Source: Spirochaetaceae bacterium (GTDB taxonomy: Bacteria > Spirochaetota > Spirochaetia > DSM-2461). Taken from it: a DNA stretch of 64,000 bases. The position numbers and the translations under genes are program-made. The DNA is taken from contig OZ245056.1 of NCBI GenBank assembly GCA_965224705.1, positions 160,001-224,000 on the forward strand, given 5' to 3'. The notes beneath the pieces are model-generated. The model was not told where the DNA came from. It searched no databases and saw only the letters and a program-made list of their open reading frames with translations. Shown here in pieces: positions 1-64,000 of the stretch; the first letter of the stretch is position 1, and each line of letters starts with the position of its first letter.

Positions 1-766
1 AACCTTCTCCAATACGGGTGAGAAGCATCTTCATCTGCTCAATTGTGGTGTTCTGAGCTTCATCAAGAACAATAGTGCAGTTGTTGAAACTTCGTCCTCT
101 CATGTAGGCAAGAGGTGCAACTTCCAGTTGACCATTGGATTTCAACTGCTCGAAAAGCCTGGTGTCTATGAAAGCTTCCATGGCATCATAGAGCGGCCGG
201 AGGTAGGGAGCAAGTTTCTGAGTGAGATCACCTGGAAGAAAACCAAGGCTTTCACCTGTTTCAACGACGGGTCTGGTCAATATGATTTTTTGCTTCTTCC
301 TGGAGAGTAATTCAATCAGGGCATGAGCAATGGCAAGAAATGTTTTCCCTGTACCAGCCGGTCCCTCACTGAAGATAAGATCACGGGTCTTCATTTCTTG
401 AATGTAATCCGCCTGTGTTCGACTTTGCGGATGAACTCTATAGTTTCCAAAGGGCAGATGAAGAACATTGTTCCGAAAAGCATTACCATCCTTCTGGTTT
501 TCAGATCCCATGGAGTAGTATATGGATCTTATATGCTGCTCGTATATAACATCATTGCTCCCGGCTAATTCCAGCAGTCTGTCCAGTATGCTGCGGAATA
601 ATTGCCTTGATTTCTTATTCTGAGATTGTATTGTTATTTCATTACCCTGCGAGTATACAGGGCTGGAAAGCAGAGTACTTATTTCTCTCAAATTGCTGTC
701 ATCCGGCCCGCACAGGGTTCCCAGGAGATGGGGGTTGTCAATAACGACTGTTAGACTATTATTCAA
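1..766 (-). CDS. phoH: PhoH-family ATPase (3' end runs off the window)
   Basis: Manual minus-strand translation from TTG at 766 gives the GPAGTGKTF P-loop, TRPVVETGESLGFLPGD and LAYMRGRSFNNCTIVLDEAQNTT...LTRIGEG motifs. Not in the ORF track because it is truncated. Confidence 0.93.
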   Translation of the reverse strand, partial: MNNSLTVVIDNPHLLGTLCGPDDSNLREISTLLSSPVYSQGNEITIQSQNKKSRQLFRSILDRLLELAGSNDVIYEQHIRSIYYSMGSENQKDGNAFRNNVLHLPFGNYRVHPQSRTQADYIQEMKTRDLIFSEGPAGTGKTFLAIAHALIELLSRKKQKIILTRPVVETGESLGFLPGDLTQKLAPYLRPLYDAMEAFIDTRLFEQLKSNGQLEVAPLAYMRGRSFNNCTIVLDEAQNTTIEQMKMLLTRIGEG

Positions 767-807
767 TAAAGCTCTCTACCAACCTTGAAGCAATGTAGCT
801 TTATACA

Positions 808-3800
808 TCATTTTGAGTCAAGATTCTCTCCAAAGGATTCAACCGACCAGACTTCATCTTCATACTTTGTTTTCTGGTTAAACATCGGCAATGGATTCCA
901 TTTTATATAGATGCTGAACGTAGATTTCCAGTCATAAACCTTTGTTGCCGTATTAATAGATGGACTGCCGGAATACTCCAATGTAACATCCCAGTTCCTT
1001 AAATGGTGAACCATGGAAAACACAAGTTTCTCCATTTTAAACTGTGAATCAAGCCGATCCTGAGGATTGAAAATATTGAACGACTTCGCCAGATCTTCAA
1101 ATAGATTATACTCCTGAGTTATATTCAACTGATCCCGCCAATGAGGAAAATAAAGATACATACTGCTGTTAATTGCATGAAATGAAAGTTTTATATCTAA
1201 AAACTTGTGAATTCTGAATTCTTGAGTCCACACGAATTTAAAGACATTGTCCGTTGGTTTGGCGAGATTGATTTTCCATGAAGTATCCAATATGGTTTTC
1301 AGCTTGATTCTGTTTTTCCAGAAGGGCAAAGGATCAATTGTTCTTTTGTATGAGAATTCCAGCCTGGTGGCCTTGAATGCGTCCTGAGCTGTATCCCATT
1401 TTACTGTGTTCTTGTTCCAATTGTATGTTGCTGCATAAGAGGCAATTAAACGGGTCTGGAATCCCCAGAATTTGAAGTTAGACTCCGCCCTGGTAAACCT
1501 CTCATCCTTAAGATCATAGGAAGCCGTTTGAGAAATTGTAACTTCTTTGTTCCAAAAAGTCCATGACGCTGACATATTCAATGGATCATGACTCCACTTT
1601 TCGCTTTTGAAAGTATTCTTCTGACTGATACTGAGTTTCAATCCTTTATATTCCAACCCGGAACCAGCCTCTATGGAGTATTGCCTGCCCAAAGGCGGTA
1701 AATTTGTTGAGAGTGTCGAATTAATCGAAAATATACCGACTTTGTAAATGAGATTGGCCAGAGTCGTATGTTTCTTTACATCTTCAGCATTTTCAATCCA
1801 TTCAAGTCGATATTCAGGATTATCCACCGTTGCAGTGTCCTGGAACACATAACTCAAAATATTCGCATCAAACTCATATTTAATAAGGGAAGTACTCAAA
1901 CCCTGTACTCCCTGAAATAATTTCAAATCGACACTGGCACTGTTATCCCAGAGGAATTTGGAGTACTTAAAATCAGAAAGTTTCGTTTTATCTTCAACGG
2001 TTCCATCAGTGCCGTAAACCGGCCTATGAACCTGGTAATAGCCCGACAATCTTGTCGAACCTTTGGCATTCAGAAATCCTCCCCAGAGATTCATCCCATA
2101 TTGAATTTTTCCAGTATGAATTGTGTTTATTTTCGCGGGCTTAAACACTTTGAAACTTATATCTTCAGGTTGAGTCCAGGCCGTGTTCAACAGTTGATCG
2201 TCCATGTAAAACTGAGAATCCAGACCATAACTGAAAGACAGATCAAGTAGTTTTGAGTTGTAAACTGTATTGTAGGCACCGATGTAAACAGGAATGTCAA
2301 TGACATCGGACTCGCTGTCTGTATCCCCGGATTTCTGTTCATTTGATTCCATGTTTTCTTCTACTTCTTTCTTGATGCGGCTGAGAGTAAAGTTGGGCAA
2401 AGCTCCCTTGAAAGAAAATTTTATGTTGGGCAGCACAAGTTTATCCGGATAGAAAAACTTCCTTGCCGGATCGTATGATTTGTCTGGATTGGTTGAAGTG
2501 GTAATGCTTTTATTATCCTTGTTTTTCCAGGTCAAAGATGCCTTGATTTGAGGAAATGAAAGGCTGCTGATCCAGGGGCTGGCACCGGAGACATTGAATC
2601 TGTACGAACCAGACAATGTCCATGACATTGAATTGGCCGCTGTTTTTTTTTCCGTGCTGTCTTCTTCCCCCAGCAGCAGCTTCATCCAGTCAAAGTTCTC
2701 TTTGCGATCCCCGAAATTCTGCTCAAAAAACGGATCTGAGTGCCAGGATAAACCAAGACTCCAGGTTTTATACTTGAGTTCAATTGAAGAAGACCATCGG
2801 AATGGTACTGTTTCTGAACCAATGTAACTGTTGTTCCAATAGACTTTTGGAGTCGATCCATCACTGAAATATACAGAACCATTATCATCGACACTGCGGC
2901 TCACTCCTATGGATGCGTGAAAATTCAAGCTGCCATCCTTCCAGAGTTTTGGAAATTCTCCATAGAAACCTGTAGCAGCACCCAGACCTGTGTAGGCATC
3001 AAGAGTGTACTTAAGGGTACCAGTCTCCTTCTTCGTGTTTTCCTTTTCTTCCGTTTCCGGTTTTTTCTTCACCAGGTACAGGCCTTCACGAACCAATTCG
3101 TAATCGGTACCTGCACTATCGCCAAAGCCCAGCATGGAGAAATCATCATCTTCTTTTTTCTGACCCAGGAAATAGGTCGTAGTTTGAATGTAATAGCCGA
3201 CATTGCTGCGTTCGCCGATTACAGGATTGAATAAAAGATCCCGGCCGGATTTCCAGTAAAAAGGCAGGTAAAGAACTGGAATATGTCCAACATATATTGT
3301 CGCACTGAGAATACTCCACTCTCCAGGGCCGGTTATCCATATTTTTGCAGCCTTCAGCGCATAGTCAGGATTCTCAACATCATAGCTGGTGATTGAACCA
3401 TCGGTGAGTAACAGGATATCAGTACTTGCACGTTTTATAGACTCTCCCCTGAAAAAAAACGGAACGTCTTTCCCATCTATCTCTTCATGTCTTTTGGAAG
3501 TTCCATGAAAAATTATCCCTGTCCAATCGCTTACCTCGAATGTGAGGCTGTCTCCGGTAAATATTTCCTCCCGTCCTTCGTTATCCACTATGTATTCTAT
3601 GTTGCCAATCGCAGAAATCGTTTTGTTTTCCTCATTGAAGATAATAGTATCAGCCTGTACCCGGTGCTTTCGATTCTGCCTTGAGTCATTGACAACAAGT
3701 ACGACATCTCCACTCAATCTCACGATTGATTCGGTTTTATCATCTGATATTTTTACTTCAAAGTATTCGCTGCGTTTTGCTGATTCAATAATAACCTGAT

Positions 3801-4185
3801 CACCATTGCCTGCGGTGCTGTCACTGTCTATCTTCAGGCTTTCAATACTGTAGTGGGAGAGAAGTCGGCTTCTAAGCTGTTCAAGTCCTCCATCAAAAGG
3901 CAGGTTGAGAACTTTGCACCAGGCAACAAGTTCCTCCCTCCCTGAAGTTTTTATATCAACTTCAAGGCTTTTCTCAATCAATCCAGGTTCCATGCTCTCA
4001 TCATCACCGTCTGACTGGAGATCCGGATCTGGAGTATCTGTTATTTCCTCACTCTGATTTTGATCCGAAGGAACTGGCTCGGCAGTTTCCTGTCCGACAA
4101 GAGAATGCATTGAAAACAGTAAAAGACCCACGACTGTTCCATGGAATAATCCTGGTATCTGAATCCATCCTGATCGCGTATTCAC
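808..4185 (-). CDS. LptD-like outer-membrane beta-barrel / LPS-assembly family protein (spirochete BB0838-like)
   Basis: 1125 aa with signal peptide, an OstA-like N-terminal beta-jellyroll region (LSGDVVL...ADTIIFN...AIGNIEY; YALKAAKIWITGPGEW...IPVLYLP) and an aromatic-rich beta-strand C-terminus. Lies directly downstream of uvrA, as in Borrelia. Confidence 0.75.
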   Translation of the reverse strand: MNTRSGWIQIPGLFHGTVVGLLLFSMHSLVGQETAEPVPSDQNQSEEITDTPDPDLQSDGDDESMEPGLIEKSLEVDIKTSGREELVAWCKVLNLPFDGGLEQLRSRLLSHYSIESLKIDSDSTAGNGDQVIIESAKRSEYFEVKISDDKTESIVRLSGDVVLVVNDSRQNRKHRVQADTIIFNEENKTISAIGNIEYIVDNEGREEIFTGDSLTFEVSDWTGIIFHGTSKRHEEIDGKDVPFFFRGESIKRASTDILLLTDGSITSYDVENPDYALKAAKIWITGPGEWSILSATIYVGHIPVLYLPFYWKSGRDLLFNPVIGERSNVGYYIQTTTYFLGQKKEDDDFSMLGFGDSAGTDYELVREGLYLVKKKPETEEKENTKKETGTLKYTLDAYTGLGAATGFYGEFPKLWKDGSLNFHASIGVSRSVDDNGSVYFSDGSTPKVYWNNSYIGSETVPFRWSSSIELKYKTWSLGLSWHSDPFFEQNFGDRKENFDWMKLLLGEEDSTEKKTAANSMSWTLSGSYRFNVSGASPWISSLSFPQIKASLTWKNKDNKSITTSTNPDKSYDPARKFFYPDKLVLPNIKFSFKGALPNFTLSRIKKEVEENMESNEQKSGDTDSESDVIDIPVYIGAYNTVYNSKLLDLSFSYGLDSQFYMDDQLLNTAWTQPEDISFKVFKPAKINTIHTGKIQYGMNLWGGFLNAKGSTRLSGYYQVHRPVYGTDGTVEDKTKLSDFKYSKFLWDNSASVDLKLFQGVQGLSTSLIKYEFDANILSYVFQDTATVDNPEYRLEWIENAEDVKKHTTLANLIYKVGIFSINSTLSTNLPPLGRQYSIEAGSGLEYKGLKLSISQKNTFKSEKWSHDPLNMSASWTFWNKEVTISQTASYDLKDERFTRAESNFKFWGFQTRLIASYAATYNWNKNTVKWDTAQDAFKATRLEFSYKRTIDPLPFWKNRIKLKTILDTSWKINLAKPTDNVFKFVWTQEFRIHKFLDIKLSFHAINSSMYLYFPHWRDQLNITQEYNLFEDLAKSFNIFNPQDRLDSQFKMEKLVFSMVHHLRNWDVTLEYSGSPSINTATKVYDWKSTFSIYIKWNPLPMFNQKTKYEDEVWSVESFGENLDSK

Positions 4186-7007
4186 TGATCGGCCAGTATC
4201 TCCCTGAGATAATATCCGGTATGAGAAGTTCTGGAACGGGCAACTTCTTCAGGTGTCCCCTGTACAACAATTCTCCCTCCGGCATCACCACCTTCAGGAC
4301 CAAGATCAATTATGTGATCAGCCTGTTTAATCACATCGAGATTGTGCTCTATCATACAAATTGTATTTCCATAATCCACAAGAGTCTGGAGGACTTCCAA
4401 CAGCTGCTTCACGTCAGAAAAATGGAGTCCTGTTGTTGGTTCATCAATTATGTAAAATGTATTACCTGTGTTCTGTTTTGAAAGCTCAAGAGCCAGTTTT
4501 ATCCGCTGTGCTTCCCCACCCGAGAGTGTTATGGCCGATTGCCCAAGCTTTATATAACTCATACCGACAGAAATCAAAGTTTCGAGTTTACGAAGAACAG
4601 AAGGAACATGGGAGAAGAAATCAGCCGCTTCATCAATGGTCATGTCCAGAACATCATGAATGTTCTTTCCCTTGAACCTGATTTCAAGAGTTTCCCGATT
4701 GAATCGGCGTCCTTTACAAATATCGCAGGTAACATAGACATCGGCAAGAAAATGCATCTCTATTCTTCTGGTACCAGCTCCTTCACATGCCTCACATCGA
4801 CCGCCCCTGACGTTGAAACTGAAACGGCCAGGTTTGAATCCCCGTGCCTTTGATTCCGGCAGATTGGCAAACAATTCACGGATTGGAGTAAACAGTCCCA
4901 CATAAGTTGCAGGATTGGATCTGGGTGTTCGGCCAATTGGACTCTGGTTGATACTGATCACCTTGTCAATGTACTCGGCTCCAGAAATAGAATCGCAGTT
5001 TCCTGCAGGATGATGGGTTCTGCCCAGTGTGTTGGAAAGCTCAGGATACAGGATGTCGGAGAGCAGTGTTGATTTCCCTGAACCTGAAACTCCCGTAATC
5101 AACACAAATTTCCCCAGGGGAATCTCTACATCAATGTTCTTGAGATTGTGTTCTCTTGCTCCCCTGACAGAAATGCTTTTACCATTCCCCTTTCTCCGCT
5201 CCTCTGGAACATGAATGAACTCGATCCCGCTCAGGAACCGGCCTGTCGGACTGTCAGGATTGGTCAGTATGGCATCCAGGGGCCCCTGAGCCACAACACA
5301 ACCGCCATGAACTCCAGCCTGGGGGCCCATATCAACGATATGATCCGCTGTTCGGATGGTTTGCTCATCATGTTCAACGACAATCAGAGTATTGCCAAGA
5401 TTTCTCAGGTGAATCAGTGTATCAATGAGTTTTCCATTGTCCCGCTGATGCAGGCCGATGGTTGGTTCATCCAGGATGTATAAGACTCCCATGAGGGAGG
5501 ATCCAATTTGAGTGGCCAGACGAATTCGCTGTGCCTCCCCGCCACTCAGGCTGGCCGATTGCCTGTCCAGGGTCAGGTATCCTAATCCCACGCTTTCAAG
5601 AAAACCCAGCCTGTCTCGTATCTCTTTCAATATCTGTTCTGCAATATGACTGTCTGTTTCATCCAGAACCAGATCATTGAAGAATTTCCCCGCTTCATGC
5701 ACAGGAAAAACTGTAACATCATGGATGTTTTTTCCACTGACAAAAACACTCAGGGCCTCCAGGTTCAATCGCTTCCCATCACAAATCCGGCATGGCCGCC
5801 GTGTCATGAAACCTTCCAGCCAATCCCGTACACCTGATGATGTGGATTCCTTGTAACGGCGGTTCAAATCTGCGATTATTCCCTTGAACTGGGAGGAATA
5901 CTCATATTTTCCCGTTCCCTTTTTGTTAACATAGGTAATGTCAATGCTCTCATCGCTTCCATAAAAGATGGAATCCAGCACATCGGATGGCAGATTGCCC
6001 AGCGGTTCATCCAGACTGAAACTGAAAGTTCTGGCCAATCCATCAAACCAGCTTCGATACCATGCTGCTTCGGGATTGTAGGGAAGAAGTCCACGTTCGT
6101 TGAAGGACAGTGAGGGGTCGGGCATGATGAGTTCCTGGTCGAATTCCTGGGTCATTCCTAAACCATCGCATGAGGAACAGGCACCATAGGGACTGTTGAA
6201 GCTAAACAGTCTGGGCTGAAGTTCGGGAAGGCTGAAACCGCATACCGGACATGAACTCCGCTCGGAAAAGAATAATTCCTCATCACCTTCATTTTTGAGA
6301 ATGCGTATTCTTACTTTTCCCTCTGTGATTTCCAATGCAGTTTCAATGGAATCCGCCAGGCGCTTCCGGCTTGAATCATCGATTTTAACCCTGTCCACCA
6401 CGATGGCAATGTCATGCTTCTTATTCTTACTCAGAGAGATTTTCTCATCCAGGGAAAGAATTTCTCCATCAACCTGTACTCTGATAAATCCGGATTGTCT
6501 GGCATCTTCAAAGATTTTCCTATGTGTTCCCTTCTTGCCTCGAACTATGGGGGCTAAAACTATCAAACGGCTTCCAGATGGAAGGGAAAGTACCGTATCC
6601 AGTATCTGATCAACAGACTGTTCCCTGATGGGAGTTCCATCCTTTGGACAGACTGGTCTTCCAATGCGGGCATAAAGCAGCCTGAGATAATCGTATATTT
6701 CCGTTATGGTTCCGACAGTTGAACGGGGATTCTTACTTGTTGTTCTCTGCTCAATTGAAATCGCAGGAGAAAGACCTTCCAGATAGTCAACATCGGGTTT
6801 ATCCATCCGTCCAAGAAACTGTCTTGCATACGCTGACAGTGATTCGACATAGCGTCTCTGTCCTTCAGCAAAGATTGTATCAAATGCCAGAGAAGACTTA
6901 CCTGAACCTGATAATCCTGATATAACAATGAGTTTATCCCGCGGCAGTTCAAGATTGATATTGCGGAGATTATGTTCCCGCGCCCCTCGTATGACAATAT
7001 CCTTCAT
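4182..7007 (-). CDS. uvrA: Excinuclease ABC subunit A
   Basis: Two ABC cassettes ([24 protein letters not shown] twice), CxxC zinc fingers, canonical N-terminus GAREHNL. Confidence 0.99.
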
Positions 7008-7972
7008 TAAGGACTCAATGTACCGGTTGTAATGAAGGGTTCTTCCAGTTGACGCCTGGCAAGAAGTCCCCAGCGGCCGGACACAGACCGTGAGATTTCA
7101 TTCTCTGCCAGAAACCGCCATAGGCTTTCCGCTCGCTCTACATACCCCTCAGCATATAATGAAACTGATAGAAGATAGAATTGAGGCCAGAAGCCGGAAT
7201 CACCAAGCCACTGCAGCAGCAGGGGATAGTGATCTCTTACAAGTTCCAATAATTCAGCCGCTCCATCCAGATCTCCTGGATATCGAACATCCCGGTCAGG
7301 ATACCTTGCGTCCTCTTCCAGATTTATATCAAAGCGCCATTCTGGCCGGTATTCTCGATATTGACCTGAAACCGTTGAGAGCAGGGAAAGAATGGTTCGA
7401 AGTGAATGCAGTAGAGACGAACGATAACGCCCGTCTTCCCACGCAATCTCACCCAGCATGCGGCGGGCCTTTAATGATTGCCGCAATTCACTGCGATAGA
7501 GGTACAATAACTCATCCAGCCCCCTGGTAACAAAGTATTCAATGTAGCGATGCTCAAGCTCAACTTCAGAACTGGAAGAAGCTCCTTCCGAGTCTGCAAT
7601 TTCCATGAGAATCAGCTCCGACTCCGAGCGGCGGCTGCCGCCGGTTTTCAGTAAAAGTTCTGCCAGAGAGTATAAGATCTGGAACCTGTCGTCAGGTACT
7701 CGCAAGTATATTGCCAGATTCAGTGCTCTTCGGTACTGCTCTTCTGCCATAACAGCCTGCCCCTGAGCGGCATAAACACGGCCAAGCCAGTATTCTGCCT
7801 CAGGATACTCATCCATAGTCTCAACAGCTTCAAGTATATACTCCATGGCGGTGGTAATGTCCCTTGATTCAAATGCCGCCTTCCCCCGTTCCAGAAGCAC
7901 CCAGGGAATCTCCTGGGCACCACAACAGACACTGAAGACAATGAGTAAAAAGAATCGCAAAGCCCAGGTCAA
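7007..7972 (-). CDS. Tetratricopeptide-repeat exported protein
   Basis: Signal-like N-terminus, TPR-like helices ([12 protein letters not shown]...AEEQYRRAL). Confidence 0.7.
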
Positions 7973-8091
7973 TACGTTACTCTCCTGTAAAAAACATATA
8001 GGAAACCAGAGTTTAATTCATTTTGGTCAATGAAGATCCGGTCAAGTACAGCCGATATTGAACGCTTTCCCAAAGTACCCTTATGCGCGGT

Positions 8092-8517
8092 TCAGCCGAC
8101 AACTCCTCTGAGAAATACCATGGCAAACAGGGCCACTGTTTCAATTAAGCCAATGACCATCACATAGTTTCCAAAACCTTTTCCTGTTTCGGCCAGTGCA
8201 TCTGAAGCGGCGGCGGCGGCAGCCCCCTGCATATATCCTGAAGCACCAATGGCAATTCCACCGAACAAGCCCACCTCCAGCAAAACCAGCGGCGGCAATG
8301 CTGAGGTATTGATGGCAATTAACAGAATCAATCCATAAAAAGTCTGGGTGAGCGGCATACCAACGAAGGCAACCAGCATAAAGGGTGCAGATTTGTTATT
8401 CGCATAGCATTTCTTCCATGCCCCTATAGCTGCCTGACCAGCCTTACCCATACCAAATGCTGAACCAACAGCCGATAAACCCAACGCGGCACCATAACCA
8501 AGTGACTCGATTTCCAT
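8092..8517 (-). CDS. ntpK: V-type ATP synthase subunit K (proteolipid)
   Basis: 141 aa with four hydrophobic helices, motifs PLTQTFYG and GLIETVALF; last gene of the V-ATPase operon. Confidence 0.95.
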   Translation of the reverse strand: MEIESLGYGAALGLSAVGSAFGMGKAGQAAIGAWKKCYANNKSAPFMLVAFVGMPLTQTFYGLILLIAINTSALPPLVLLEVGLFGGIAIGASGYMQGAAAAAASDALAETGKGFGNYVMVIGLIETVALFAMVFLRGVVG

Positions 8518-8519
8518 AT

Positions 8520-10415
8520 TTACTCCTTATTTGCTTCCGATATTTCAACTTCCGGAACATGCAGGCTGAATGGCTTGAAGCCGATTCCAGCCCATTCCAT
8601 ATCCAGGTGACCGGAGAACTCAAGTACATTGAGCCGCACACCGTGAACCAACACCGATAATGCACTCAAAACCAAATTTAACGCGTGACCAATGCCAAGT
8701 ATCAACACAGCGGCTGCGATGGCGACTCCATCACCGCGAGGTGCCATTGCATTAAAACTCTGGGAAAGAGCCACTCCAACCAGACCGACAGCAAAAAGCC
8801 TGATAAAGGATATTATATCACCAAAGGCCCCAATAGAATTGAGCAGAGTTGGAAGCAGGTTCTTCAATCCCCTCAGTACCCCGCTCATGAAGGACGTTCC
8901 CCTCTTCTGCTCCCCAAAAATCAGGACGACAAGGAGTCCTCCAAGTATAACCGGGAGCGCCAACTCCATAATGATGGGCAGTGGAGAAAGCTGCAGGACA
9001 ATACTCATGATGAGCCAGTACATGGTAATCACGATGGACAACCATCCTAACTGTGCTATAGCTGACAGAGAAGGGCATCTGCGAACAAAGTTCTGTATTC
9101 GTGCGATTAGAATCATCACAATACCCAGCAGAAGACTGATCCACATTGTAAATGTGGTAACATTCATCGAATCATCAGGAAAAATCTTCATCCTGACCAC
9201 ATAACCTGGGAAAAGCTCATCCTGGTAGGTCGCAATTGCCGGTATAACAAAATTCTTCAGCACGGTATCCCGTACCAGTGAGAGAGATGAAAACCAGGTT
9301 CCCGTCACTGTTCCCCAAATCAAAGTTGTAACACCAAATATAAAAATGAGACGGAGTGTATCTGTCATCTTTCGGATTTTTAAGAGAACAGCCAGTGCCA
9401 GTATTAGAATAACGGTTCCATACCCGGCATCCCCGAGTATCATGGCTGTAAATATACTGAGAAAGGAAAGAAACCAGAAACTGATATCCGGTTCATGATA
9501 TCCTGGAAAAATTCCCATCAACTTGAAAACAGGCTGTATAACTCTGATTGCGGGAGAATTCTTTACCAGAGTAGGAACCACTTCATCCTCGTGCGGATCC
9601 CTCATCACCAGTCCCCATGATTTTTCTGCGGCCAGCGATTTGAGATTATCCGCTTCGTGTACGGGTATAAAACCCGTAAACCCTGTCAATCCTTCATCAA
9701 CCGGCAGTGAACTCCTTATCTCTTCAAATTCAACATCCTGCCGTACAGCAATAACAGCCTGTTCCATCATTGTGTAGAATGCTCCCAGTTCCCCCAATTC
9801 CTGCCTTACCCTGGCCAGATCCTCTTTTGCTGTCGAGATCAAAGTTTCCAGTTCCGATAAACCATACTCTGGTAAATCAATACCCCTCTCTCCACCATTC
9901 TCCGGGGTTTGTCTGTATATTAACACACCAGAAACAATGCTCTTCTTCTTTCGCATTGGAATAAATACAGCTTTCGTATCCATTCGTAAACGTTCTCTGG
10001 TTTCAGCGTCAGAATCAATCAAACGAATATCGATTCCTTTCGCGGCCAGCATCCTTATGTCGATAGGACTGAAGTTTTCCCATGGTTTCAGCAGTTCAAA
10101 ATCTTTGTTCAGTTGAGAAAGACATTTAAGAAGCTCATCTTCCCTGTTTTTTTTTCTCAGGATCTCATCAGCTTTTTCATTTGCTTCTTTCCTGTTCAGC
10201 CTGGCATGGTGCTGATTCTTCCTGCCTTTAAACTGGGCAATACATCCCTGAGCTTTGTTGAGTTTGTTCAACTCATTCAGCAAGTTTTCAGGCACTGCCA
10301 TGGCATCCGGTTCCTGCTGAATATGCATAACACCAGCCCGCCGCAGCGTCTTCAAGGCCGACTGTCGGTGCTTATCCTGGAGAGCTACACTGACTTTCTT
10401 CATTTTGACAATCAT
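8520..10415 (-). CDS. ntpI: V-type ATP synthase subunit I
   Basis: MIVKMKKV start, PGYHEPD, GDAGYG, DIISFIRLFAVG and HGVRLNVLEF motifs. Confidence 0.96.
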   Translation of the reverse strand: MIVKMKKVSVALQDKHRQSALKTLRRAGVMHIQQEPDAMAVPENLLNELNKLNKAQGCIAQFKGRKNQHHARLNRKEANEKADEILRKKNREDELLKCLSQLNKDFELLKPWENFSPIDIRMLAAKGIDIRLIDSDAETRERLRMDTKAVFIPMRKKKSIVSGVLIYRQTPENGGERGIDLPEYGLSELETLISTAKEDLARVRQELGELGAFYTMMEQAVIAVRQDVEFEEIRSSLPVDEGLTGFTGFIPVHEADNLKSLAAEKSWGLVMRDPHEDEVVPTLVKNSPAIRVIQPVFKLMGIFPGYHEPDISFWFLSFLSIFTAMILGDAGYGTVILILALAVLLKIRKMTDTLRLIFIFGVTTLIWGTVTGTWFSSLSLVRDTVLKNFVIPAIATYQDELFPGYVVRMKIFPDDSMNVTTFTMWISLLLGIVMILIARIQNFVRRCPSLSAIAQLGWLSIVITMYWLIMSIVLQLSPLPIIMELALPVILGGLLVVLIFGEQKRGTSFMSGVLRGLKNLLPTLLNSIGAFGDIISFIRLFAVGLVGVALSQSFNAMAPRGDGVAIAAAVLILGIGHALNLVLSALSVLVHGVRLNVLEFSGHLDMEWAGIGFKPFSLHVPEVEISEANKE

Positions 10416-11017
10416 GAGGCAGCCCTTTCCAATCCCCTTTTGGAGATTTTGCCCCGTACAACTGCGGCTGTTTGCTGATCGCCAAGATAAATTCCGATTT
10501 TCTTTATATGGGACTGGGTCTCCGGGATTTTGATTTTTTCAAACAGGTTCACTCTCTGTGAAGTAGTACGCAATTCCCTGGCCAGTCTTTTTCGCTGTTC
10601 ATTGAGGATGCCCAATTGCAGATCGAGCAGAATAACTTTCTGCAATTCTTTTACAGCCCGGTCAATCCAGAGCGGCATGAGCCAGAGATCATAGGTAGTG
10701 GGGGCAAAGACTGCCCCCTCGAAGAGGGGAATACTGACTCCAGCGATGTTTCCTTCGCTGGTTTTCACCTCTTCGAGAACCGGAAAGGTTTCATCCAATC
10801 CCACCTCTTCACCAAAAACAGCAACCCATTTTTTTATATTATTTTCCAACTTTTCTTTTTTATCCTGTACTTCCGCAATCCGTTCTTCAACTTTCTGAAT
10901 TTCTACCTGAAGCTGCTGTTTCTTCAGGATAAGGGTCGGCAGATACCGTCGATACATTTTAAGAGAATCTTTTTGTTTCTTGAGCTCATTCTTAGTAAGT
11001 CTAACCTTAGCCATCAA
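10412..11017 (-). CDS. ntpD: V-type ATP synthase subunit D
   Basis: LTKNELK...YLPTL, TTSQRVNLFEKIKIP motifs. Confidence 0.96.
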   Translation of the reverse strand: MMAKVRLTKNELKKQKDSLKMYRRYLPTLILKKQQLQVEIQKVEERIAEVQDKKEKLENNIKKWVAVFGEEVGLDETFPVLEEVKTSEGNIAGVSIPLFEGAVFAPTTYDLWLMPLWIDRAVKELQKVILLDLQLGILNEQRKRLARELRTTSQRVNLFEKIKIPETQSHIKKIGIYLGDQQTAAVVRGKISKRGLERAAS

Positions 11018-11029
11018 TCCTTCTCTTGT

Positions 11030-12322
11030 TTACTCCGGCCAAAACTTCTCTATCAAATTTGAACGCAGACCTGTTTCCTCTTTATCAAAACACTCTGCAA
11101 GAATTTGCCAGCCATTATCCAGAGCCTGTTCAATTGGGATATTGACAGAGAGACTCATCATCTCCTTCTCAAACAAATCGCCGTATTTCAACAATTTTTC
11201 ATCCCAATTTGTCATTAGAAAACCCATTGACTGCTTTTCCAGGGAGTCTTTGTATGTGGCATACAGCTTTATCATACCATTCATCAATGCACGATGATCA
11301 TCCCGAGTTTTATCATTGACCTGTTGTTTGAGGCGGCTGAGAGAACCGAAGGGCTCTATCCGTCCATTCCTCAGGTAGAATTGACCCTCAGTGATGTAAC
11401 CTGTGTTATCCGGGACGGGATGAGTAACATCATCTCCCGGCATCGTGGTGACAGCCAGAATAGTTATGGATCCTGCTCCCTCAATATCCACCGCTTTTTC
11501 ATATCGGCTGGCCAACTGGGAATACAGATCTCCAGGATAACCTCGATTGGACGGAACCTGTTCCTGGGTGATGGCAATTTCCTTCATGGCATCAGCAAAG
11601 TTGGTCATATCTGTCAGTAAAACCAGCACTTTTTCGCCTTTCAGTGCAAACTTCTCGGCCACGGCAAGGGAAATATCCGGCACCATGAGGCCCTCAACCA
11701 CAGGATCGGCAGCTGTATGAATGAAGAGAATTGAACGACTTATCGCCCCACCCTCCTCCAGAGTGTCCCGGAAGTAAAGGTAATCATCGTGTTTAAGCCC
11801 TATCCCCCCCAGTATGATAAGATCAACTTCAGCCTGAAGGGCTATCCTGGCCAATAACTCATTGTATGGCTCTCCAGAAATTGAGAAGATGGGTAATTTC
11901 TGACTCTCTACCAGTGTATTAAAAAGATCGATCATCGGGATACCGGTTCGGACCATGTTTCCTGGAATGATTCGCCGGGTTGGATTAAAGGATGGGCCCC
12001 CTATGGGGATCATGTTTTCTTTCAGCGCAGGGCCCTTATCCCGCGGCTCACCCGAACCATCAAACACTCTTCCCCGTAAATTATCACTGAATGAAACCTG
12101 CATGGGCTTTCCAAGAAAACGCAATTCATCCCCGGTGGATATTCCGCGGGTACCAACGAAGACCTGCAGCGATACCAGGTCTTTATCCATTTTTATGACT
12201 TCCGCAAGAGATGTCCCAAATGATGTGTTGATAACTGCTAAATCCCCGTACCGAATACCGTCGGCTTTTACGGTGATGACATTGCCTGCAATGGATTCAA
12301 TCCGACTGTACACCTTATTCAC
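11030..12322 (-). CDS. ntpB: V-type ATP synthase subunit B
   Basis: [26 protein letters not shown] and [14 protein letters not shown] motifs. Likely start is GTG at 12322 (the ORF track extends to 12361). Confidence 0.97.
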
Positions 12323-57198: not shown

Positions 57199-57438
57199 AA
57201 GGCACTTTAACGAGATATCAGACAGTATGTCTATTACCAGTTTAGAATGATGTAGAAGTATTGAGCTGTTATATCAGGTATAAATCTTCACCTAACCGAT
57301 TTTAGATGAAACCACTTTCGTTCATGGCTGTTTGATTTTTCATTGGCATTTTAGCTGCAGCATTCCAAAAAATCTCCTTCCCATCTCAAGAAAAATCAGC
57401 TATGGTTTAGCATAGAATATCAACCCTGGAGATTGAAT

Positions 57439-60426
57439 ATGCGTTTCGGAAAATGGATGGATCTGGTTTCGGGAGTTTTGACAAAGGGCCTGCTTCTTAT
57501 GATCGGCGGGCTATTTTTCTCAGGGGCGGCTTTGTTTGCCCAGAACAGGCGGGTGGCCCTGGTTATCGGTAACAGCGCCTATGAGCATGTGACGCCGCTG
57601 AATAATCCCATCAACGATGCCCAGGACATTGGGGTAACTCTGGAGAATCTGGGATTCACGGTGAGCCGGGTGCTGGATGCCAGCAAGGGCGATATTCAGC
57701 GAGCGGTGGACGAGTTCAAGGATCAGGCTTCCCAGAGAGGAACAGAGATGGCTCTGTTCTACTACTCCGGGCATGGGGTGGAATACGAGGGGATTAACTA
57801 CATTGTGCCGGTGTCGGCGGATATCAGCGACAGCTACGCCCTGATTGACCAGGCTGTTAGTCTGGAGAGGGTGGTGAACGCCATGGAACAGGGGCGTTCC
57901 GAGTTCAACATGGTGGTGCTGGATGCCTGCCGGGACAATCCCTTCTTTAAGAGCCGCGGCGGGGGCCGGGGGCTGGCGGCGATGAGCGGCGGAAGCAAGG
58001 GGAGCATGATTGTGTTCGCCACCAGTCCCGGGGATGTGGCCGCCGATGGGGTGGGGCGCAACAGTCCCTTCACCAGGGCCTTCATTGAGCACGCCGCCAC
58101 GCCGGGACTGGAGTTGAGCACGCTGATGCGGAAGGTGACCGGCACGGTGAAGGACGCAACGGGAGGGCGGCAGACCCCGTGGTTCAACGCCTCCTACAGC
58201 GGGGATATGTATCTGGGGGCGGTGGAAGAACTGACCAATGCCGCGGCCCGGGCCGGAACGGTTAACCTGGAAATAGCGGCCCTTGAGGCCGAAATCGCCC
58301 AGCGGGAAGAGGCCATCGCCGCTGCCCGCGACCGGACCGAGAGGATACGCCTGGAGGCTGAGCAGCAGCGGGCCCGTGCCGAAGAGGCGGCCCGGCGGAT
58401 GCAGGCCGAACAGCTCACCGAAATCGCCCTGAGGGCCAGGGAGGCCATTGATCAGAAAGAGGCTGACGCGGCCCTGCGCCGTCAGATGGAAGAACAGCTT
58501 GCCACCGAGAGGGTCCGCTTATCCGAGCAGGCCCAGGAGAGACGGGCCCGCCTTGAGGATCTTAAAAAAACCGGCGGCGGGGGACTTGGGGCGTGGGAGC
58601 AGCTCAAAACCATCGCCAGCCTGGTTCAGGCCGTCGCGGACATTGAGGAGCGCTTTGATGCCGCCATGGCGGCCATGGAAAAGGAGGTGGATGCCCTCTA
58701 CGACCAGCAGGCCGCGGCGGTGCGGGAGAACAACCCTAAGGAACCCTTTGAAACCCAGGAGGAATACGAGGCCCACATTGACGAACTGACTGCCGAAATA
58801 CGGGTTCGGCAAGAGGCGGAGATAGCAAAGCGGCGCGATGATCTTGGGGGCAGCCGTGAAACGGAATTAAGCGGCCTTAAGGAGCAGATGGCCCTGGCCC
58901 GGGCGGAACTGGGGCAGAGCCGCTTTGTTCTGGGGGCCGGTACCACCACGGTGACGGTGGCCCCCTTCAGTGCGGAAGACAAGAGCTTTCCCATGGAGGT
59001 GGAGGCCAGGCATGAGGAGCTGGCCTTCAGTATCCCGGTGTCCTACACGCTCAGTGGAACAAGCCGGGACGCGTTGAGAGACGAGTACTACCGGATCTAC
59101 CGTGCCGACCGTTCCGGCGGGCTGGCGGGGGAGCTTTCCTACAGGGCCTTTGAGCTGTCCCCCAACATCTGGGTTCTTCAGCCGACGGAAACCCGGGTGG
59201 TGAACCTTCTGGAAAACGACGCGGTGCTGACCGGTTCCCGCCAGTCAGGAGGGGCCATGGTGCTGAGCACGGAAAGGAAGCTGGAGAAGCTGGCGGCGGT
59301 GCTGCGTCTGGAATCGGGGGTGGCCGGGGAGGAGGCCGTGTTGAAGCTGGATGGAAAGGCCGTGGGGAAAACACCCTACACTCTGGGCGTCGATGAAACC
59401 CGGCTGGGTACGACCCGGGCAGAATTTGAGTGGCCCGATGGCCGCCGTCTGGCCTACAGCATACCCATCAACCGGGGGGTGAACGCGGCGGCAGTGGCCC
59501 TGCCGGAGAGACTGGAACGGCGGGGAATGGCGCTGTTCAGCGGCCTGCCGGTAGACACCGAGGTAGAACTGGCCGGAACCACGAAGCAGGCGGACGAAGG
59601 GCTGGCGATATTCACCCTGCCCGAAGGCCGCCACAGCTACAGCCTGTCGGGCTACTGGCTGATGAAACCGGGCAGCGGGGAGCTGGAGATTTCCAGCATG
59701 GATTCCCCGCTGGTGAACGTGGGCCTGGCGGAGGCTCAAACCTCGGTGGCCGGAGAAATCGCCCTGCCGCTGGGCGAAGATCTGCCCAAAAAGGTGGAGA
59801 TGGATGTCCGTTTTTACAGTCTGGACGGCAGGGAGGCGGCGGCGCAAGCCGAGTACAGAGACGGAGTTCTGGTGGCCCGTTTAGAGGAGGGCGAATACCA
59901 GATGGCCCTCAGCCGAAGCGACGACCCCTACCTTGCCGTGGTTAAACCGACTCAGGTTAGGGGTCAACAAAAAATCGAGGAAGGACTCACTGAATTGCCG
60001 CTTTCGGCCCGCTATAGGCTGGAGACGGCCCGGGCCAATCTAGAGCGGACGGAGAAGAAGATGGCCCGGCGCAAACCGCGCAATACTCTTGGAGGTGTGC
60101 TTCTGGGAACAGGCGTTCTGGGCTTGGGTGCGGTGGTTCTCAGTGCCCTTATGGGCGAAGAAGCCAGGGCGGCCTATGAGGGGGCATCTTCCACGGCGGG
60201 TTTAACCGCTGCACGGGGGGAATTGGAAATCTGGAACGGGGTGTTTATTGCCGGGGCCATCGCGGGGGGTGTTGGAACGGCCCTGGGCACGGGGCTTCTG
60301 GTTTTTGGTCCCAGTAAGAATGAACTCAGGGTTCAGCGCGATGAGTTCAGGGATAAGATAATTCTCTACGAGGATGAGTACCGGGGTCTTCTGTCCCAAC
60401 AGCCGCTTTACGGGAGAACGAAATGA
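57439..60426 (+). CDS. Exported caspase-domain (peptidase C14) protein with coiled coil, PEGA-like beta domains and C-terminal hydrophobic segments
   Basis: Signal peptide, RVALVIGNSAY, LNNPINDA, catalytic YYSGHG and LDACRDNP, ATSPGDVAADG...NSPFT, QTPW. The GGAG RBS fits ATG 57439 (the ORF track uses TTG 57433). Confidence 0.9.
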   Translation: MRFGKWMDLVSGVLTKGLLLMIGGLFFSGAALFAQNRRVALVIGNSAYEHVTPLNNPINDAQDIGVTLENLGFTVSRVLDASKGDIQRAVDEFKDQASQRGTEMALFYYSGHGVEYEGINYIVPVSADISDSYALIDQAVSLERVVNAMEQGRSEFNMVVLDACRDNPFFKSRGGGRGLAAMSGGSKGSMIVFATSPGDVAADGVGRNSPFTRAFIEHAATPGLELSTLMRKVTGTVKDATGGRQTPWFNASYSGDMYLGAVEELTNAAARAGTVNLEIAALEAEIAQREEAIAAARDRTERIRLEAEQQRARAEEAARRMQAEQLTEIALRAREAIDQKEADAALRRQMEEQLATERVRLSEQAQERRARLEDLKKTGGGGLGAWEQLKTIASLVQAVADIEERFDAAMAAMEKEVDALYDQQAAAVRENNPKEPFETQEEYEAHIDELTAEIRVRQEAEIAKRRDDLGGSRETELSGLKEQMALARAELGQSRFVLGAGTTTVTVAPFSAEDKSFPMEVEARHEELAFSIPVSYTLSGTSRDALRDEYYRIYRADRSGGLAGELSYRAFELSPNIWVLQPTETRVVNLLENDAVLTGSRQSGGAMVLSTERKLEKLAAVLRLESGVAGEEAVLKLDGKAVGKTPYTLGVDETRLGTTRAEFEWPDGRRLAYSIPINRGVNAAAVALPERLERRGMALFSGLPVDTEVELAGTTKQADEGLAIFTLPEGRHSYSLSGYWLMKPGSGELEISSMDSPLVNVGLAEAQTSVAGEIALPLGEDLPKKVEMDVRFYSLDGREAAAQAEYRDGVLVARLEEGEYQMALSRSDDPYLAVVKPTQVRGQQKIEEGLTELPLSARYRLETARANLERTEKKMARRKPRNTLGGVLLGTGVLGLGAVVLSALMGEEARAAYEGASSTAGLTAARGELEIWNGVFIAGAIAGGVGTALGTGLLVFGPSKNELRVQRDEFRDKIILYEDEYRGLLSQQPLYGRTK

Positions 60427-61862
60427 GTGTGAGGAAATGGGTGATTCCGGTGCTGATGGCCGCGGCGGGTTTGCTGGTCTCCTGTCCCGGGGATATTTTG
60501 AAGAATCTGGATAATCCCATGGATCCGAAGGCTTCCTCCTATCAGGGTTATCATACGGTGGAGGGTGCGGATGAGGTGGAGGCGCATACGCCGACCTATG
60601 GCGGAAGTCTTGTGTTACAGCGTTTCATTATCAGCGAGGCATTAGAGGCGGAAGCCTACCACCTGCAGATAGCCTCTTCTGCGGATTTTGGGAATGCGCT
60701 TTATGATGGGGACAGCCATACCGCCAACATCATGCTGGCCGATGCGCCGCTTTCTTTGAACACCGATTACTACTGGCGGGGCCGGGCAAAGCAAGGCGGC
60801 CAGTGGGGAAAGTGGACCGATGGGTGGAAATTCACCATGACCACCATTGGCGGCCTAAGCCCCGCCGATGGGAGTTTCACCACGGACACCACGCCGACGC
60901 TGAGTTGGGATGCGGTACCGGGTGCGGCAAGTTACGAGTTACGTATAGCCGACAGCGAGTCCGGTTTAACCAGTGCATCATCGGACATTGTAACAGGCAC
61001 CACCCACACGCCGGCATCGGCCTTGACGGACGGGCAGACCTATTACTGGCAGGTGAGGGCAAAGGATGGGGCTGGACAGTTTGGGGCCTGGAGTGCGGTT
61101 CAAAGTCTGAATGTGGCGGCAGTTCCCCAGGGCTTTGTCTACGTAGTAGGCGGAACCTTCCAGATGGGCAGCACCAACAGCGATGCTGAATCGAATGAAA
61201 GCCCGGTGCACAGCGTAACGGTGAATTCGTTTTACATGGCCGAAACGGAGGTGACCTTTGATCAATACGATGCGTACTGTGCTGCTACTGGTGCTAATCA
61301 GCCTGACGATGGGGGCTTTGGTCGGGGGAACCGTCCGGTGATGAATGTGACTTGGTATGACGCAGTGAATTACTGTAATTGGCTGAGCGGGCAAGAGGGC
61401 TTAACCCCTGCCTATGAGGTAAACGGAACAGCCGTGAGCTGGAACCAGAGTGCCAATGGCTATCGATTGCCAACGGAGGCCGAGTGGGAATATGCGGCGC
61501 GGGGAGGGAGCCAGTCACAGGGATATAAGTATGCTGGGAGTAACGATGTGGATGAAGTGGGCTGGTATAAGGATAATTCCGGGAGTAAGCCCCAACCGGT
61601 GAAGGGCAAGAAGGCCAATGAACTGGGACTGTATGATATGAGCGGGAATGTATATGAGTGGTGCTGGGACTGGTATGATAATTATAGTTCTGGTTCTCAG
61701 ACCAATCCCACAGGGCCATCCAGCGGGTCGAAGAGGGTGTCGCGCGGCGGGAGCTGGGGTAGCCACGGTGTCCGTCCCCCGCAGTCGGTGTATCGTGGCC
61801 GCCTTTCGCCCGGCGATAGCCGCGACAGCCTCGGCTTCCGCCCCGTTCGGAGGACCAATTAG
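60423..61862 (+). CDS. Lipoprotein with Fn3-like domains and C-terminal FGE-sulfatase (SUMF1/CLec-fold) domain; probable DGR target
   Basis: Lipobox LLVSC, two YYW(R/Q)xRA Fn3-like repeats, GGTFQMG, EVTFDQY, YRLPTEAEWEYAARGG, NELGLYDMSGNVYEWC and RGGSW...GFR motifs. Confidence 0.92.
   Translation: MSVRKWVIPVLMAAAGLLVSCPGDILKNLDNPMDPKASSYQGYHTVEGADEVEAHTPTYGGSLVLQRFIISEALEAEAYHLQIASSADFGNALYDGDSHTANIMLADAPLSLNTDYYWRGRAKQGGQWGKWTDGWKFTMTTIGGLSPADGSFTTDTTPTLSWDAVPGAASYELRIADSESGLTSASSDIVTGTTHTPASALTDGQTYYWQVRAKDGAGQFGAWSAVQSLNVAAVPQGFVYVVGGTFQMGSTNSDAESNESPVHSVTVNSFYMAETEVTFDQYDAYCAATGANQPDDGGFGRGNRPVMNVTWYDAVNYCNWLSGQEGLTPAYEVNGTAVSWNQSANGYRLPTEAEWEYAARGGSQSQGYKYAGSNDVDEVGWYKDNSGSKPQPVKGKKANELGLYDMSGNVYEWCWDWYDNYSSGSQTNPTGPSSGSKRVSRGGSWGSHGVRPPQSVYRGRLSPGDSRDSLGFRPVRRTN
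61725..61862 (+). repeat. Putative DGR variable repeat (VR)
   Basis: RV.RGGSW...R......LGFR segment in which the non-conserved codons nearly all end in C/T, as expected from AAY template codons. No cognate TR seen in the window. Confidence 0.6.
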
Positions 61863-61868
61863 CTTTTG

Positions 61869-62098
61869 GTTTTTTACCTTTCGCAGAAAAGTACCCGGTA
61901 GCATGAAGTTCGGAAAAAGCCCCGCAGGGGCAAAAAAGCGCCAACGGCGCAAAGGATGTCCCCATGCCGCAGGCAAATGCGGGACATTGCGGGCCGAGGG
62001 CCCGCTGATTTTAGGGCAGGAAGGGTAAAAAGAATGGTCAGTGCCTGATGGCATGAAGGAGGTCGGCAGGCATAAGCAGGCCCGCCGCCGAGAGGCGG
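61869..62098 (+). other. Cluster of GC-rich short-loop hairpins downstream of the VR
   Basis: GCCCC-GCA-GGGGC (61919), GCGCC-AAC-GGCGC (61938), TGCC-GCA-GGCA (61965), GCGGGCC-GAG-GGCCCGC (61989), CCGCC-GAGA-GGCGG (62085). Confidence 0.75.
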
Positions 62099-62165
62099 AA
62101 AAAATTTTTTTGGATATTCGGGATAATGCTTACAGGATTAGCTCCTTTTAAGAAGAGGCGGAGAA

Positions 62166-62625
62166 ATGCTGAATTACAGACTGTTCAGTGTGCCGGTTAA
62201 CGCGCCCCAGGACGAAATGCGGGAGTTGAACAAATTTCTAAAGCGGCCACCGCATCATGCAGGTGGATAAAACTCTGGCAACAGATGGCGGATCCAGCTT
62301 CTATGTGTTCTGCATCGCTTACGATGAAAAAAATCCCCAGCATAGCGCGAACAGCAGGAATGCTGTGGATTATAAGGAAGTTTTGAACGATGAAGATTTT
62401 GCTGTGTTCAGTAAGCTGCGGGAGCTGCGGAAGGAATGCGCCGAGCAATTCGGCAGGCCCGTGTATGCTGTGTTTACCAATGAACAGTTGGCTAAAATGG
62501 TCACTGGAAAGGTCTATAAGCCTGAGGAAATGCGGAAAATCGACGGCATAGGAGAGTCCAAGATGGCTGATTATTCAAAGCGGTTCCTGGATTTTCTCCA
62601 GTCCGTATACAGCCTGGAACCATGA
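62166..62625 (+). pseudogene. HRDC-domain DGR accessory gene, frameshifted
   Basis: ATG 62166 gives MLNYRLFSVPVNAPQDEMRELNKFL; after one extra A near 62240-62242 the +1 frame continues SGHRIMQVDK...VDYKEVL...FSKLRELRK...PVYAVFTNEQL...IDGIGESK (HRDC motif). Confidence 0.8.
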
Positions 62626-62690
62626 AGCGGGCGGGAAATCTCTATTTTTTAACCGCAGAGGACGCAGAAAGCGCAGAGTGTTCAAGGTAA
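62622..62690 (+). pseudogene. N-terminal stub of DGR-type reverse transcriptase (MKRAGNLY), truncated
   Basis: ATG overlaps the HRDC stop (ATGA). MKRAGNLY resembles the MKRxGNLY/F N-terminus of DGR RTs. The sequence switches to a REP-like repeat at about 62646-62651 and stops at 62690. Confidence 0.55.
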
Positions 62691-62747
62691 ATATTGACCA
62701 ATTTTTTATGCTATATTTCTCTGCGCAGCTCCGCGTCCTCTGCGGTT
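62651..62747. repeat. REP-like inverted repeat pair
   Basis: AACCGCAGAGGACGCAGAAAGCGCAGAG (62651-62678) versus CTCTGCGCAGCTCCGCGTCCTCTGCGGTT (62719-62747). Confidence 0.8.
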
Positions 62748-62868
62748 TATCCCCAGAAAGAATTATATCAAAGAGGACTGGATTTTTTTGTACTATGGAT
62801 AGGTACTATGGACTTCTCACGGAGGCACGGAGGTGGGGAACTCGGAATGCAGGGGAGGCTTGTTTCTG

Positions 62869-63735
62869 TTAGAGCTTTTTGAGCTCTTCTTCGCTTAGGC
62901 CGGTGGCCTTGATGATGATGTCAAGGGAGACTCCGGCGGCTTTGAAGTCTTTGACTGTTTGGGTTATGCCTTTCTCTATGCCTTTTTCCATGCCGTCGTT
63001 CCAGGATTCATCCAGACCGCTTAGATAATCCCTTCTCCATTTCTCTTTGGCTTCCAGCCTGTCAAGCATGGCTTGATCGGCGGTGAATGTGGTGTAGAGT
63101 TTATGGGCCTCCTGAATATACGGGTTGTCTCCCAATAGCACTCGCATCTCGTCCTCCTTTAAGTAACCTTCGTACTTGAAAAAATAGCACCATCGCTCAA
63201 AGTCGCTCCTAAAAGTCAAGTTGTCTTTGTTGGGAAAGGTCATCTTCGACAGCTCCATAAACATGATGCACAGATGATCCGTCAACACCAGCTCTGGATT
63301 ATCCTTTTCCGTAATATGAAAGCAGGTGTAATACTCCTCCAACTGCGGAAAAATGGGTGTGCCAACCAGATTGATGCAAATAACCGGATTGAGCATGGTG
63401 TACACATCGGATTTCTTCAATTGGCTCTGGTAGTTCTTTGCCCAGTAGAGCAGACTGCGATTGGCAAAATACTCGCCGGTGGAAATTTGTATTTCTATGT
63501 CGATAATGCGTTTGTGACTGTCTCTTGCCTTGACATCCAGTATGGTTTCCTTGTCGTTGAAGTACTCTTTCAGGTTGTAGGGGTTAAGTATCTCGACGCT
63601 GATAACCGGACTTAATCCCTTTGGGGTTAAAAACGCATTGATGAAATTCGCCAGCAGGCTGGTGTTTTTCTCATCGCCCAGAAGGGCACGGGCAAACAAG
63701 TCAGACAGCGGATCGAACGGTCTGGTTGATTCCAT
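62869..63735 (-). CDS. Rpn family recombination-promoting nuclease / PD-(D/E)XK putative transposase
   Basis: SDLFARALLG, LLANFINAFL, ILDVKARD...IDIEIQ, RSLLYWAK, ELSK and GMEKGIEKG...IIKATGLS motifs. Confidence 0.93.
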   Translation of the reverse strand: MESTRPFDPLSDLFARALLGDEKNTSLLANFINAFLTPKGLSPVISVEILNPYNLKEYFNDKETILDVKARDSHKRIIDIEIQISTGEYFANRSLLYWAKNYQSQLKKSDVYTMLNPVICINLVGTPIFPQLEEYYTCFHITEKDNPELVLTDHLCIMFMELSKMTFPNKDNLTFRSDFERWCYFFKYEGYLKEDEMRVLLGDNPYIQEAHKLYTTFTADQAMLDRLEAKEKWRRDYLSGLDESWNDGMEKGIEKGITQTVKDFKAAGVSLDIIIKATGLSEEELKKL

Positions 63736-63848
63736 GGATTTACATTACGGGAGTTTTGGTGTTTATGCAAGGGATATTTCTCACGGAGGACACGGGGGCA
63801 CGGAGGTGGGGCTGTCAAATGCCGGGGAGGCTGCGGGGGGATTTTCCT

Positions 63849-64000
63849 GTTAGCGCTTTTGGATCTCCTCTTTGCTCAGGCCGGTGGCCTTGATGATGTC
63901 AAGGAAAACTCCGGCGGCCTTGAAGTCTTTGACTGTTTGCATTATGCCTTCAAATGCTGAAATAGGATCACTGTAGAAGGAATAATTGATGAAATTCTTT
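63849..64000 (-). pseudogene. Internally deleted Rpn paralog or stand-alone Rpn C-terminal module (5' part outside window)
   Basis: Open frame KNFINYSFYSDPISAFEGIMQTVKDFKAAGVFLDIIKATGLSKEEIQKR*. The last ~33 codons are a close nucleotide copy of the 3' end of the 62869-63735 gene. Confidence 0.7.

Follow-up and report, generated by a model that had tools for sequence, protein, structure and literature searches.

A probable dead diversity-generating retroelement of the HRDC class in a Spirochaetaceae genome

Diversity-generating retroelements (DGRs) rely on a reverse transcriptase (RT) that miscopies the adenines of a template repeat (TR), with the cDNA then replacing the 3′ end of a target gene. 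We examined a 64,000-nucleotide stretch of DNA from a Spirochaetaceae bacterium (the window, G000:C1:160001-224000), which belongs to a single-contig, 3.0-Mb genome that is 95.2% complete (G000). Close to its downstream end, the window contains what is very probably a dead DGR of a target-HRDC-RT-TR subtype, in which the RT and the TR have been lost. The target gene is followed by a hairpin spacer, a frameshifted HRDC accessory gene, and the first codons of an RT that break off at a palindromic repeat. The original prediction had named these same parts (target, hairpins, HRDC, the peptide MKRAGNLY, and a repeat), and each is present where it was placed. A search of the literature, with most subscription papers outside its reach, turned up no account of a DGR from this lineage.

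The strongest evidence lies at the HRDC-RT junction. The DGR-type HRDC gene (62166..62625, plus strand) begins with an ATG at 62166 and carries one extra base within CTAAAG (62238-62243), producing a +1 frameshift beyond which a distal 122-aa open reading frame (ORF; 62257-62625) still matches HRDC (E 1.2e-14). Its counterpart in a congener, G012, is intact at 150 aa and shares 64% identity with it. Although frameshifted, the HRDC gene of this locus retains the arrangement of a stand-alone HRDC gene adjoining or overlapping the RT that defines Architecture C (Wu et al. 2018, PMC5758913), since its stop codon overlaps the RT start (ATGA, 62622-62625). The RT then continues for eight codons, MKRAGNLY (62622..62645, plus strand). 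A longer RT relic at G000:526641, which likewise encodes MKRAGNLY, begins with the same 25 nt as the stub, which is therefore not a chance motif. The similarity extends upstream: 62095-62646 has a 95%-identical copy at G000:526113-526665, part of a paralogous HRDC-RT module (cassette B; paralog at G000:526185) that runs on into a recognizable RT. In the window, the RT instead meets a 108-nt palindromic repeat resembling MITEs (transposable elements of the miniature inverted-repeat kind) or repetitive extragenic palindromes (62645..62752, unstranded; z -7.3, with 0/200 shuffles as good), which marks the deletion junction. A plain insertion of the palindrome into the RT was rejected: no distal part of the RT lies beyond it, which points to a deletion or rearrangement instead. 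The repeat itself or the neighboring nucleases may have caused the break.

Relatives of the HRDC gene indicate what once followed it. An alignment scan of metagenomes confirmed at least 333 HRDC relatives among at least 602 pattern matches, and we analyzed the neighborhoods of the best 80. An RT lies directly downstream of HRDC in 74 of these 80, or in 73 of the 76 that could be scored for linkage (at least 300 nt downstream of HRDC), and the relatives' RTs begin with MRRAGNLY or MKRAGNLY. Both observations bear out the earlier assignment to an HRDC-class DGR that has lost its RT and TR. Avd had no match in any of the 80 loci. The TR follows the RT in 41 of the 47 loci with room for it; it never precedes the RT, but 600 nt of upstream sequence was available in only 35 loci. 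Given this order, one deletion from codon 9 onward accounts for the loss of both RT and TR. An intact HRDC-RT pair, of the kind that the original prediction proposed to look for, exists in G012, where the 150-aa HRDC overlaps a 336-aa RT (start MRRAGNLY) with the TR directly after it. Over 127 nt, neighboring and remote targets in G012 differ from this TR at 1-6 non-adenine sites, one remote target at 1. Three unrelated HRDC-RT loci (L062, L063, and L064) display an HRDC broken by a stop or frameshift and an RT that is apparently intact to the contig end; either sequencing error or a dispensable HRDC may explain them.

The target gene (60423..61862, plus strand) is an intact ORF encoding a predicted 479-aa lipoprotein that has two Ig/FN3-like repeats and ends in an FGE-type C-type-lectin (CLec) domain. 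Residues 237-476 match Pfam FGE-sulfatase (E 1.9e-55), residues 154-231 correspond to an Ig/FN3-like domain, and the best PDB match, and closest solved structure, is TvpA of Treponema denticola (2y3c, E 1.4e-36). A hydrophobic stretch up to LLVS-C21, read by eye, forms the predicted lipobox. An AlphaFold model from a five-sequence alignment was not used, given its mean pLDDT of 51.5 and values below 50 in the variable region (VR). The putative VR occupies the C-terminal coding end (61722..61845, plus strand) and stands out because it diverges from related TRs with an adenine bias, has an extra codon, and carries three unusual scaffold residues (P-Q-S-V). Compared with TR_D (G000:1539360), the nearest TR in the genome, 22/33 adenines differ versus 16/88 other bases (Fisher p 1e-6). 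This bias runs in the expected direction, but the template is non-cognate, and scaffold conservation could yield part of it. Behind the VR lie a 3′ end common to other targets that resembles an initiation of mutagenic homing (IMH) site and an array of GC hairpins (61846..62165, plus strand), identified by a fold test and stem listing. The segment 61840-62170 folds at z -2.4 (1/100 shuffles as good) and includes GC stems with 3-nt loops at 61919-61931, 61938-61950, and 61989-62005. This spacer spans ~300 nt and matches, at 77%, the one that follows the VR of a CLec gene in another genome, G001. A CLec-fold target with a C-terminal, adenine-diverged VR and an IMH-like end followed by GC-rich inverted repeats is what a DGR relic would retain. 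A promoter scan of the locus gave hits at chance level only.

The VR itself is atypical. It is longer by one codon than 54/54 TRs and 85/88 VRs collected; 3-base indels beside AAC runs are a known by-product of DGRs (PMC5758913), and another VR-TR pair in G000 likewise has a 3-base indel. At three scaffold positions the window encodes P, Q, and V, where the consensus is C/L/V/A in 81/85, R in 81/85, and A in 80/85 VRs. A frozen variant in polished form would be a poorer fit to the loss of these residues than a relic that is drifting or whose last homing event was sloppy. The proposal that decay froze one target variant thus stands only in part: the RT and TR are gone and the ORF is intact, but the VR carries non-adenine scaffold changes and public runs contain a second allele.

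An adenine-aware scan of both strands of G000 with the whole VR and parts of it returned no cognate TR and surfaced only TR_C (2210369) and TR_D, and no matching TR was seen among the loci inspected in a DNA search of 14 genus genomes. The copy differing almost only at adenines that had been anticipated was therefore not recovered. A degenerate VR-derived pattern gave 0 matches in metagenome contigs; as it contained the extra codon and required exact matching, the negative is a weak one. These searches bear on the alternative offered by the original prediction, that the target is remote and depends on an RT and TR acting in trans from another part of G000. Such service has precedents in G012, where a remote target differs from its TR at 1 non-adenine site, and in PMC10907252; moreover, G000 does possess two CLec-type TRs, to which three other targets match with 4, 5, and 8 non-adenine differences. 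The window VR, by comparison, has 20 non-adenine differences from TR_C and 16 of 88 from TR_D, plus a 3-nt indel, and nothing better emerged from the scan, so that no TR matching the VR at non-adenine positions is at hand. Three further targets also fit neither TR (19-26 by non-adenine count). Nor is there machinery to act in trans. A PF00078 search of G000 returned five RT matches, comprising three 426-aa frames that are only ~25% alike to the DGR RT and presumably of group II intron type, and two DGR RTs. RT-B, of cassette B, is interrupted by a repeat near codon 34 and truncated just past YMDD; in RT-C, which belongs to a TR-HRDC-Avd-RT cassette, 165 nt are inserted behind codon 104; and a further, Lcl-type relic has an RT stub. 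Neither in cis nor in trans did the assembly yield an intact DGR RT. Service in trans is accordingly largely refuted for this assembly, and we consider it highly improbable.

Several observations weigh against a simple history in which the adjacent module diversified this target and then died. Since no search recovered the cognate TR, the VR is a putative one and its adenine-only mutagenesis is presumed. The VR differs from the cassette B target at 32/84 never-adenine positions and is nearer to TR_D (15/84), so the adjacent module may not be the one that diversified this target. Public data add a 3-nt-shorter VR allele with 13-17 differences in three runs (X1, X3, and X5) and an X5 contig with one base fewer across the HRDC frameshift region (62154-62310) and substitutions at 62240 and 62241. 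The X5 variant is probably an open frame, and together with the second allele it suggests that the population is not uniformly frozen. Finally, X1, which carries a VR allele identical to that of the window, may be the source sample; the allele differs by 1 base in X3, from a separate study.

The affinities of the VR raise the possibility of a chimeric locus: the TR-HRDC-Avd-RT family (cassettes C and D) would have diversified the target, behind which a copy of the cassette-B HRDC-RT module, perhaps already broken, later recombined. This scenario, which we regard as possible but doubtful and which is compatible with a DGR relic, would explain why identity with cassette B starts abruptly at 62095, inside the spacer, and why the VR 3′ end resembles the C/D targets and TR_D. 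The frameshift, too, is common to both HRDC copies, where it falls in a 114-nt stretch that is identical between them (p about 0.02). The copies differ, however, at 25/480 bases, with 17 synonymous versus 7 non-synonymous codons (5 versus 1 upstream of the frameshift). This synonymous excess implies that both were under selection after separating and favors a later gene conversion that spread the frameshift; divergence under selection followed by gene conversion would be the simplest reading of the two copies. In addition, the homologous caspase-lipoprotein locus of G012 also has an HRDC-type RT relic behind it.

The population data suggest a different refinement, also tentative and likewise compatible with a dead DGR, namely that the assembly represents one degraded haplotype and that, in strains living alongside it, the cassette at this locus is intact and the target still being diversified. 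Near-identical sequence is present in 12 public runs from 3 studies, several labeled mollusc metagenome; four of the 12 were aligned to the locus (X1, X3, and X5 among them), all as contigs, in which rare variants get lost. The second VR allele appears in 3 of these 4, though it may be a strain-specific paralog, and the gap and two substitutions of the X5 contig are consistent with an open HRDC frame. Intact and degraded variants do coexist in Thiohalocapsa (PMC10907252). Against this, an HRDC protein cluster of 10 members (two from G000) contains nine that start at the post-frameshift methionine and one that is shorter, with none full length, and among the loose contig ends listed, none runs into an RT at 62645.

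The same protein and contig data bear on whether the HRDC frameshift and the RT break are real. An indel error combined with a misjoin at the repeat would suit a break at a multi-copy element, an extra base in a short A run, and the apparent indel errors in relatives' loci. A short-read contig from X1 nevertheless crosses the frameshift gap-free, though it ends 29 nt past the RT junction, slightly short of the 31 letters required for bridging, and protein P0026, from another assembly, encodes the same RT-repeat junction peptide; an assembly artefact is thus extremely improbable. Continued expression of HRDC, through programmed frameshifting or the internal methionine, and a function without the RT seem very unlikely. 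The extra base is common to both copies and the 122-aa distal ORF retains the whole HRDC domain, but a +1 slip at TTT-C meets an immediate TAA, and no other slippery site was found by eye before the in-frame stop. Homologs in G012 and in alignment A1 have a continuous N-terminus, and the RT to be assisted is gone. Only 8-14% of words from the region are present in public RNA runs.

We therefore return to the dead DGR as the favored account. In the intact state, a single transcript would have carried HRDC, the RT, and the template RNA. The RT would have miscopied TR adenines. With the help of the IMH and hairpins, the cDNA would have replaced the 3′ end of the lectin gene, so that the lipoprotein, partnered by a caspase-like protease, varied at its binding tip. 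A single deletion ending at the palindrome may then have taken the RT and TR together, after which HRDC would have decayed, leaving a target ORF that persists undiversified and has drifted at scaffold positions.

HRDC DGRs form Architecture C, with 14 cases in 11 arrangements (PMC5758913). The present locus resembles them in its HRDC beside an RT, its CLec target with a C-terminal VR, its GC inverted repeats, the several chromosomal targets, and the 3-nt VR indels beside AAC runs; it differs in being non-functional and in its target-HRDC-RT-TR order, which may already be among those 11 arrangements. The suggested parallel with the T. denticola DGR holds for the spirochaete host, the FGE-type CLec lipoprotein targets scattered over the genome, and an HRDC overlapping the RT start (PMC4891356). 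It does not extend to gene order: in T. denticola the TR lies between target and HRDC (TR-HRDC-RT), a position in which no TR exists here, the present subtype having its TR after the RT. The window target also has FN3-like repeats and a caspase-gene partner, and its machinery is left as stubs. Eight of 17 T. denticola strains keep targets without an RT or TR, and leftover targets that match a lost TR are also on record (Nimkulrat et al., PMC4891356). Thiohalocapsa PB-PSB1 offers a further parallel: MITE-like arrays stand in place of the RT or TR, VRs occur that no TR matches, and broken variants are found next to intact ones (Dore et al. 2024, PMC10907252). It recalls the present genome in having several DGR loci, in their duplication and the shuffling of domains, in repeats that have taken the place of RT or TR, and in caspase-like neighbors, whereas it keeps one complete locus per DGR class and G000, a spirochaete with an HRDC accessory, has no intact DGR RT. 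Decay of this kind, with degenerate loci, repeat-replaced RTs, and orphan targets, is already published for Thiohalocapsa and Treponema, and the locus itself consequently adds little mechanism.

Its interest lies elsewhere. The HRDC-RT-TR order without Avd is common among the scorable loci of the best 80 metagenome relatives, compared with the 14 HRDC DGRs of the 2018 reference set (PMC5758913), and the intact cassette of G012 makes it possible to ask what HRDC contributes where Avd is lacking. With all detected DGR machinery broken and at least 8 CLec genes still present, G000 is a natural case of target fate after diversification stops, and RT-anchored surveys will undercount such lineages. 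A broader scheme, which we judge unlikely as it stands, would have the caspase-lipoprotein sensors of the genus, with FGE-CLec or Lcl-type tips, diversified during brief DGR visits, the machinery repeatedly destroyed at palindromes beside PD-(D/E)XK arrays, and the finished alleles persisting and moving between species. It builds on the four RT relics of G000, all of which end at or contain small repeats, and on a VR in the genus genome G009 that matches the G012 TR. Were rare intact strains to restore the supply of variants, losing the DGR would amount to a strategy of the population and more than decay.

The target overlaps by 4 nt with the upstream gene (57433..60426, plus strand), which encodes a 997-aa coiled-coil protein with a caspase domain (Peptidase_C14; PF00656 E 4e-38). 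Full-length homologs of it lie upstream of FN3-lipoprotein targets at 2 loci in G012 and 1 in G009, and the pair carries either an FGE-CLec or an Lcl-type tip in these three cases. An Lcl target of G000 has 85% DNA identity to part of the N-terminal half of the window target. By analogy with Dore et al. (PMC10907252), we infer that the target may once have been a variable envelope sensor coupled to the protease. FGE matches number 18 in G001, 16 in G009, and 25 in G012. The G009 VR noted above belongs to such a caspase-lipoprotein (L166, G009:C1 ~163170-163300, minus strand) and shows, over 127 nt, 0 non-adenine mismatches to the G012 TR; no TR of the G012 type and no HRDC-type RT were found in G009, and the match may reflect recent interspecies transfer or a binning effect. 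The homologous locus in G012 itself (L167, G012:C2:979000-984100, minus strand) has behind it RT fragments interrupted by repeats and, with no HRDC, a 123-codon piece of an HRDC-type RT; its VR still matches the intact G012 TR.

The palindrome at the RT junction gave 132 BLAST matches in G000 at 130 merged places, with 18-nt arms that are 94% complementary; many dispersed copies with terminal inverted repeats are typical of MITEs. The flanks of 27 near-full copies have no evident target-site duplication and often form tandem arrays, no transposase is linked to them, and an Rfam search of the palindrome found no family near its gathering score. Of its matches, 55/132 fall within 1.5 kb of PD-(D/E)XK/Rpn genes, compared with 7.7% of random positions. 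Next to the junction copy lies an Rpn-family PD-(D/E)XK nuclease gene (62869..63735, minus strand; TIGR01784 147.8 bits versus a cut-off of 52.1), the first of a tandem array of Rpn-related genes that extends ~10 kb past the window end. This minus-strand array (window 62869-64000 and 1-11300 of the adjoining locus L012) has palindromes interspersed, and 7 kb downstream it contains a second Lcl-type RT stub (G000:C1:229507-229715), whose truncation junction is common with that of the relic at 1,005,500. At least 4 families of short inverted-repeat elements are multi-copy in G000.

That relic, the fifth in the genome (G000:C1:1005500-1009450, minus strand), comprises a lipoprotein target, an Avd split by a transposase-like gene, and an RT stub that ends near the same palindrome family; from its YWSS motif we take it to be of the Lcl/DUF1566 family. 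Its VR-TR pair has 25 adenine mismatches, 2 others, and one 3-nt gap. RT-B is 46% identical to the RT of locus L173, whose VR equals the C-terminus of TvpA. Cassette C (G000:C1:2208000-2212800) has the order target-TR-HRDC-Avd-RT. Small repeats interrupt both its HRDC and its RT, a 7-mer is arrayed in tandem upstream of the TR, and part of the cassette is duplicated nearby at 2216200-2216450. TR_D (G000:C1:1539200-1539900, minus strand) adjoins a target that it does not match (19 non-adenine differences) yet matches distant targets, and no RT lies behind it. An ORF elsewhere in the genome (G000:C1 ~1537950-1536630, minus strand) presumably resembles a sterol reductase, judging by its C-terminal motif, which would be unusual for a spirochaete.

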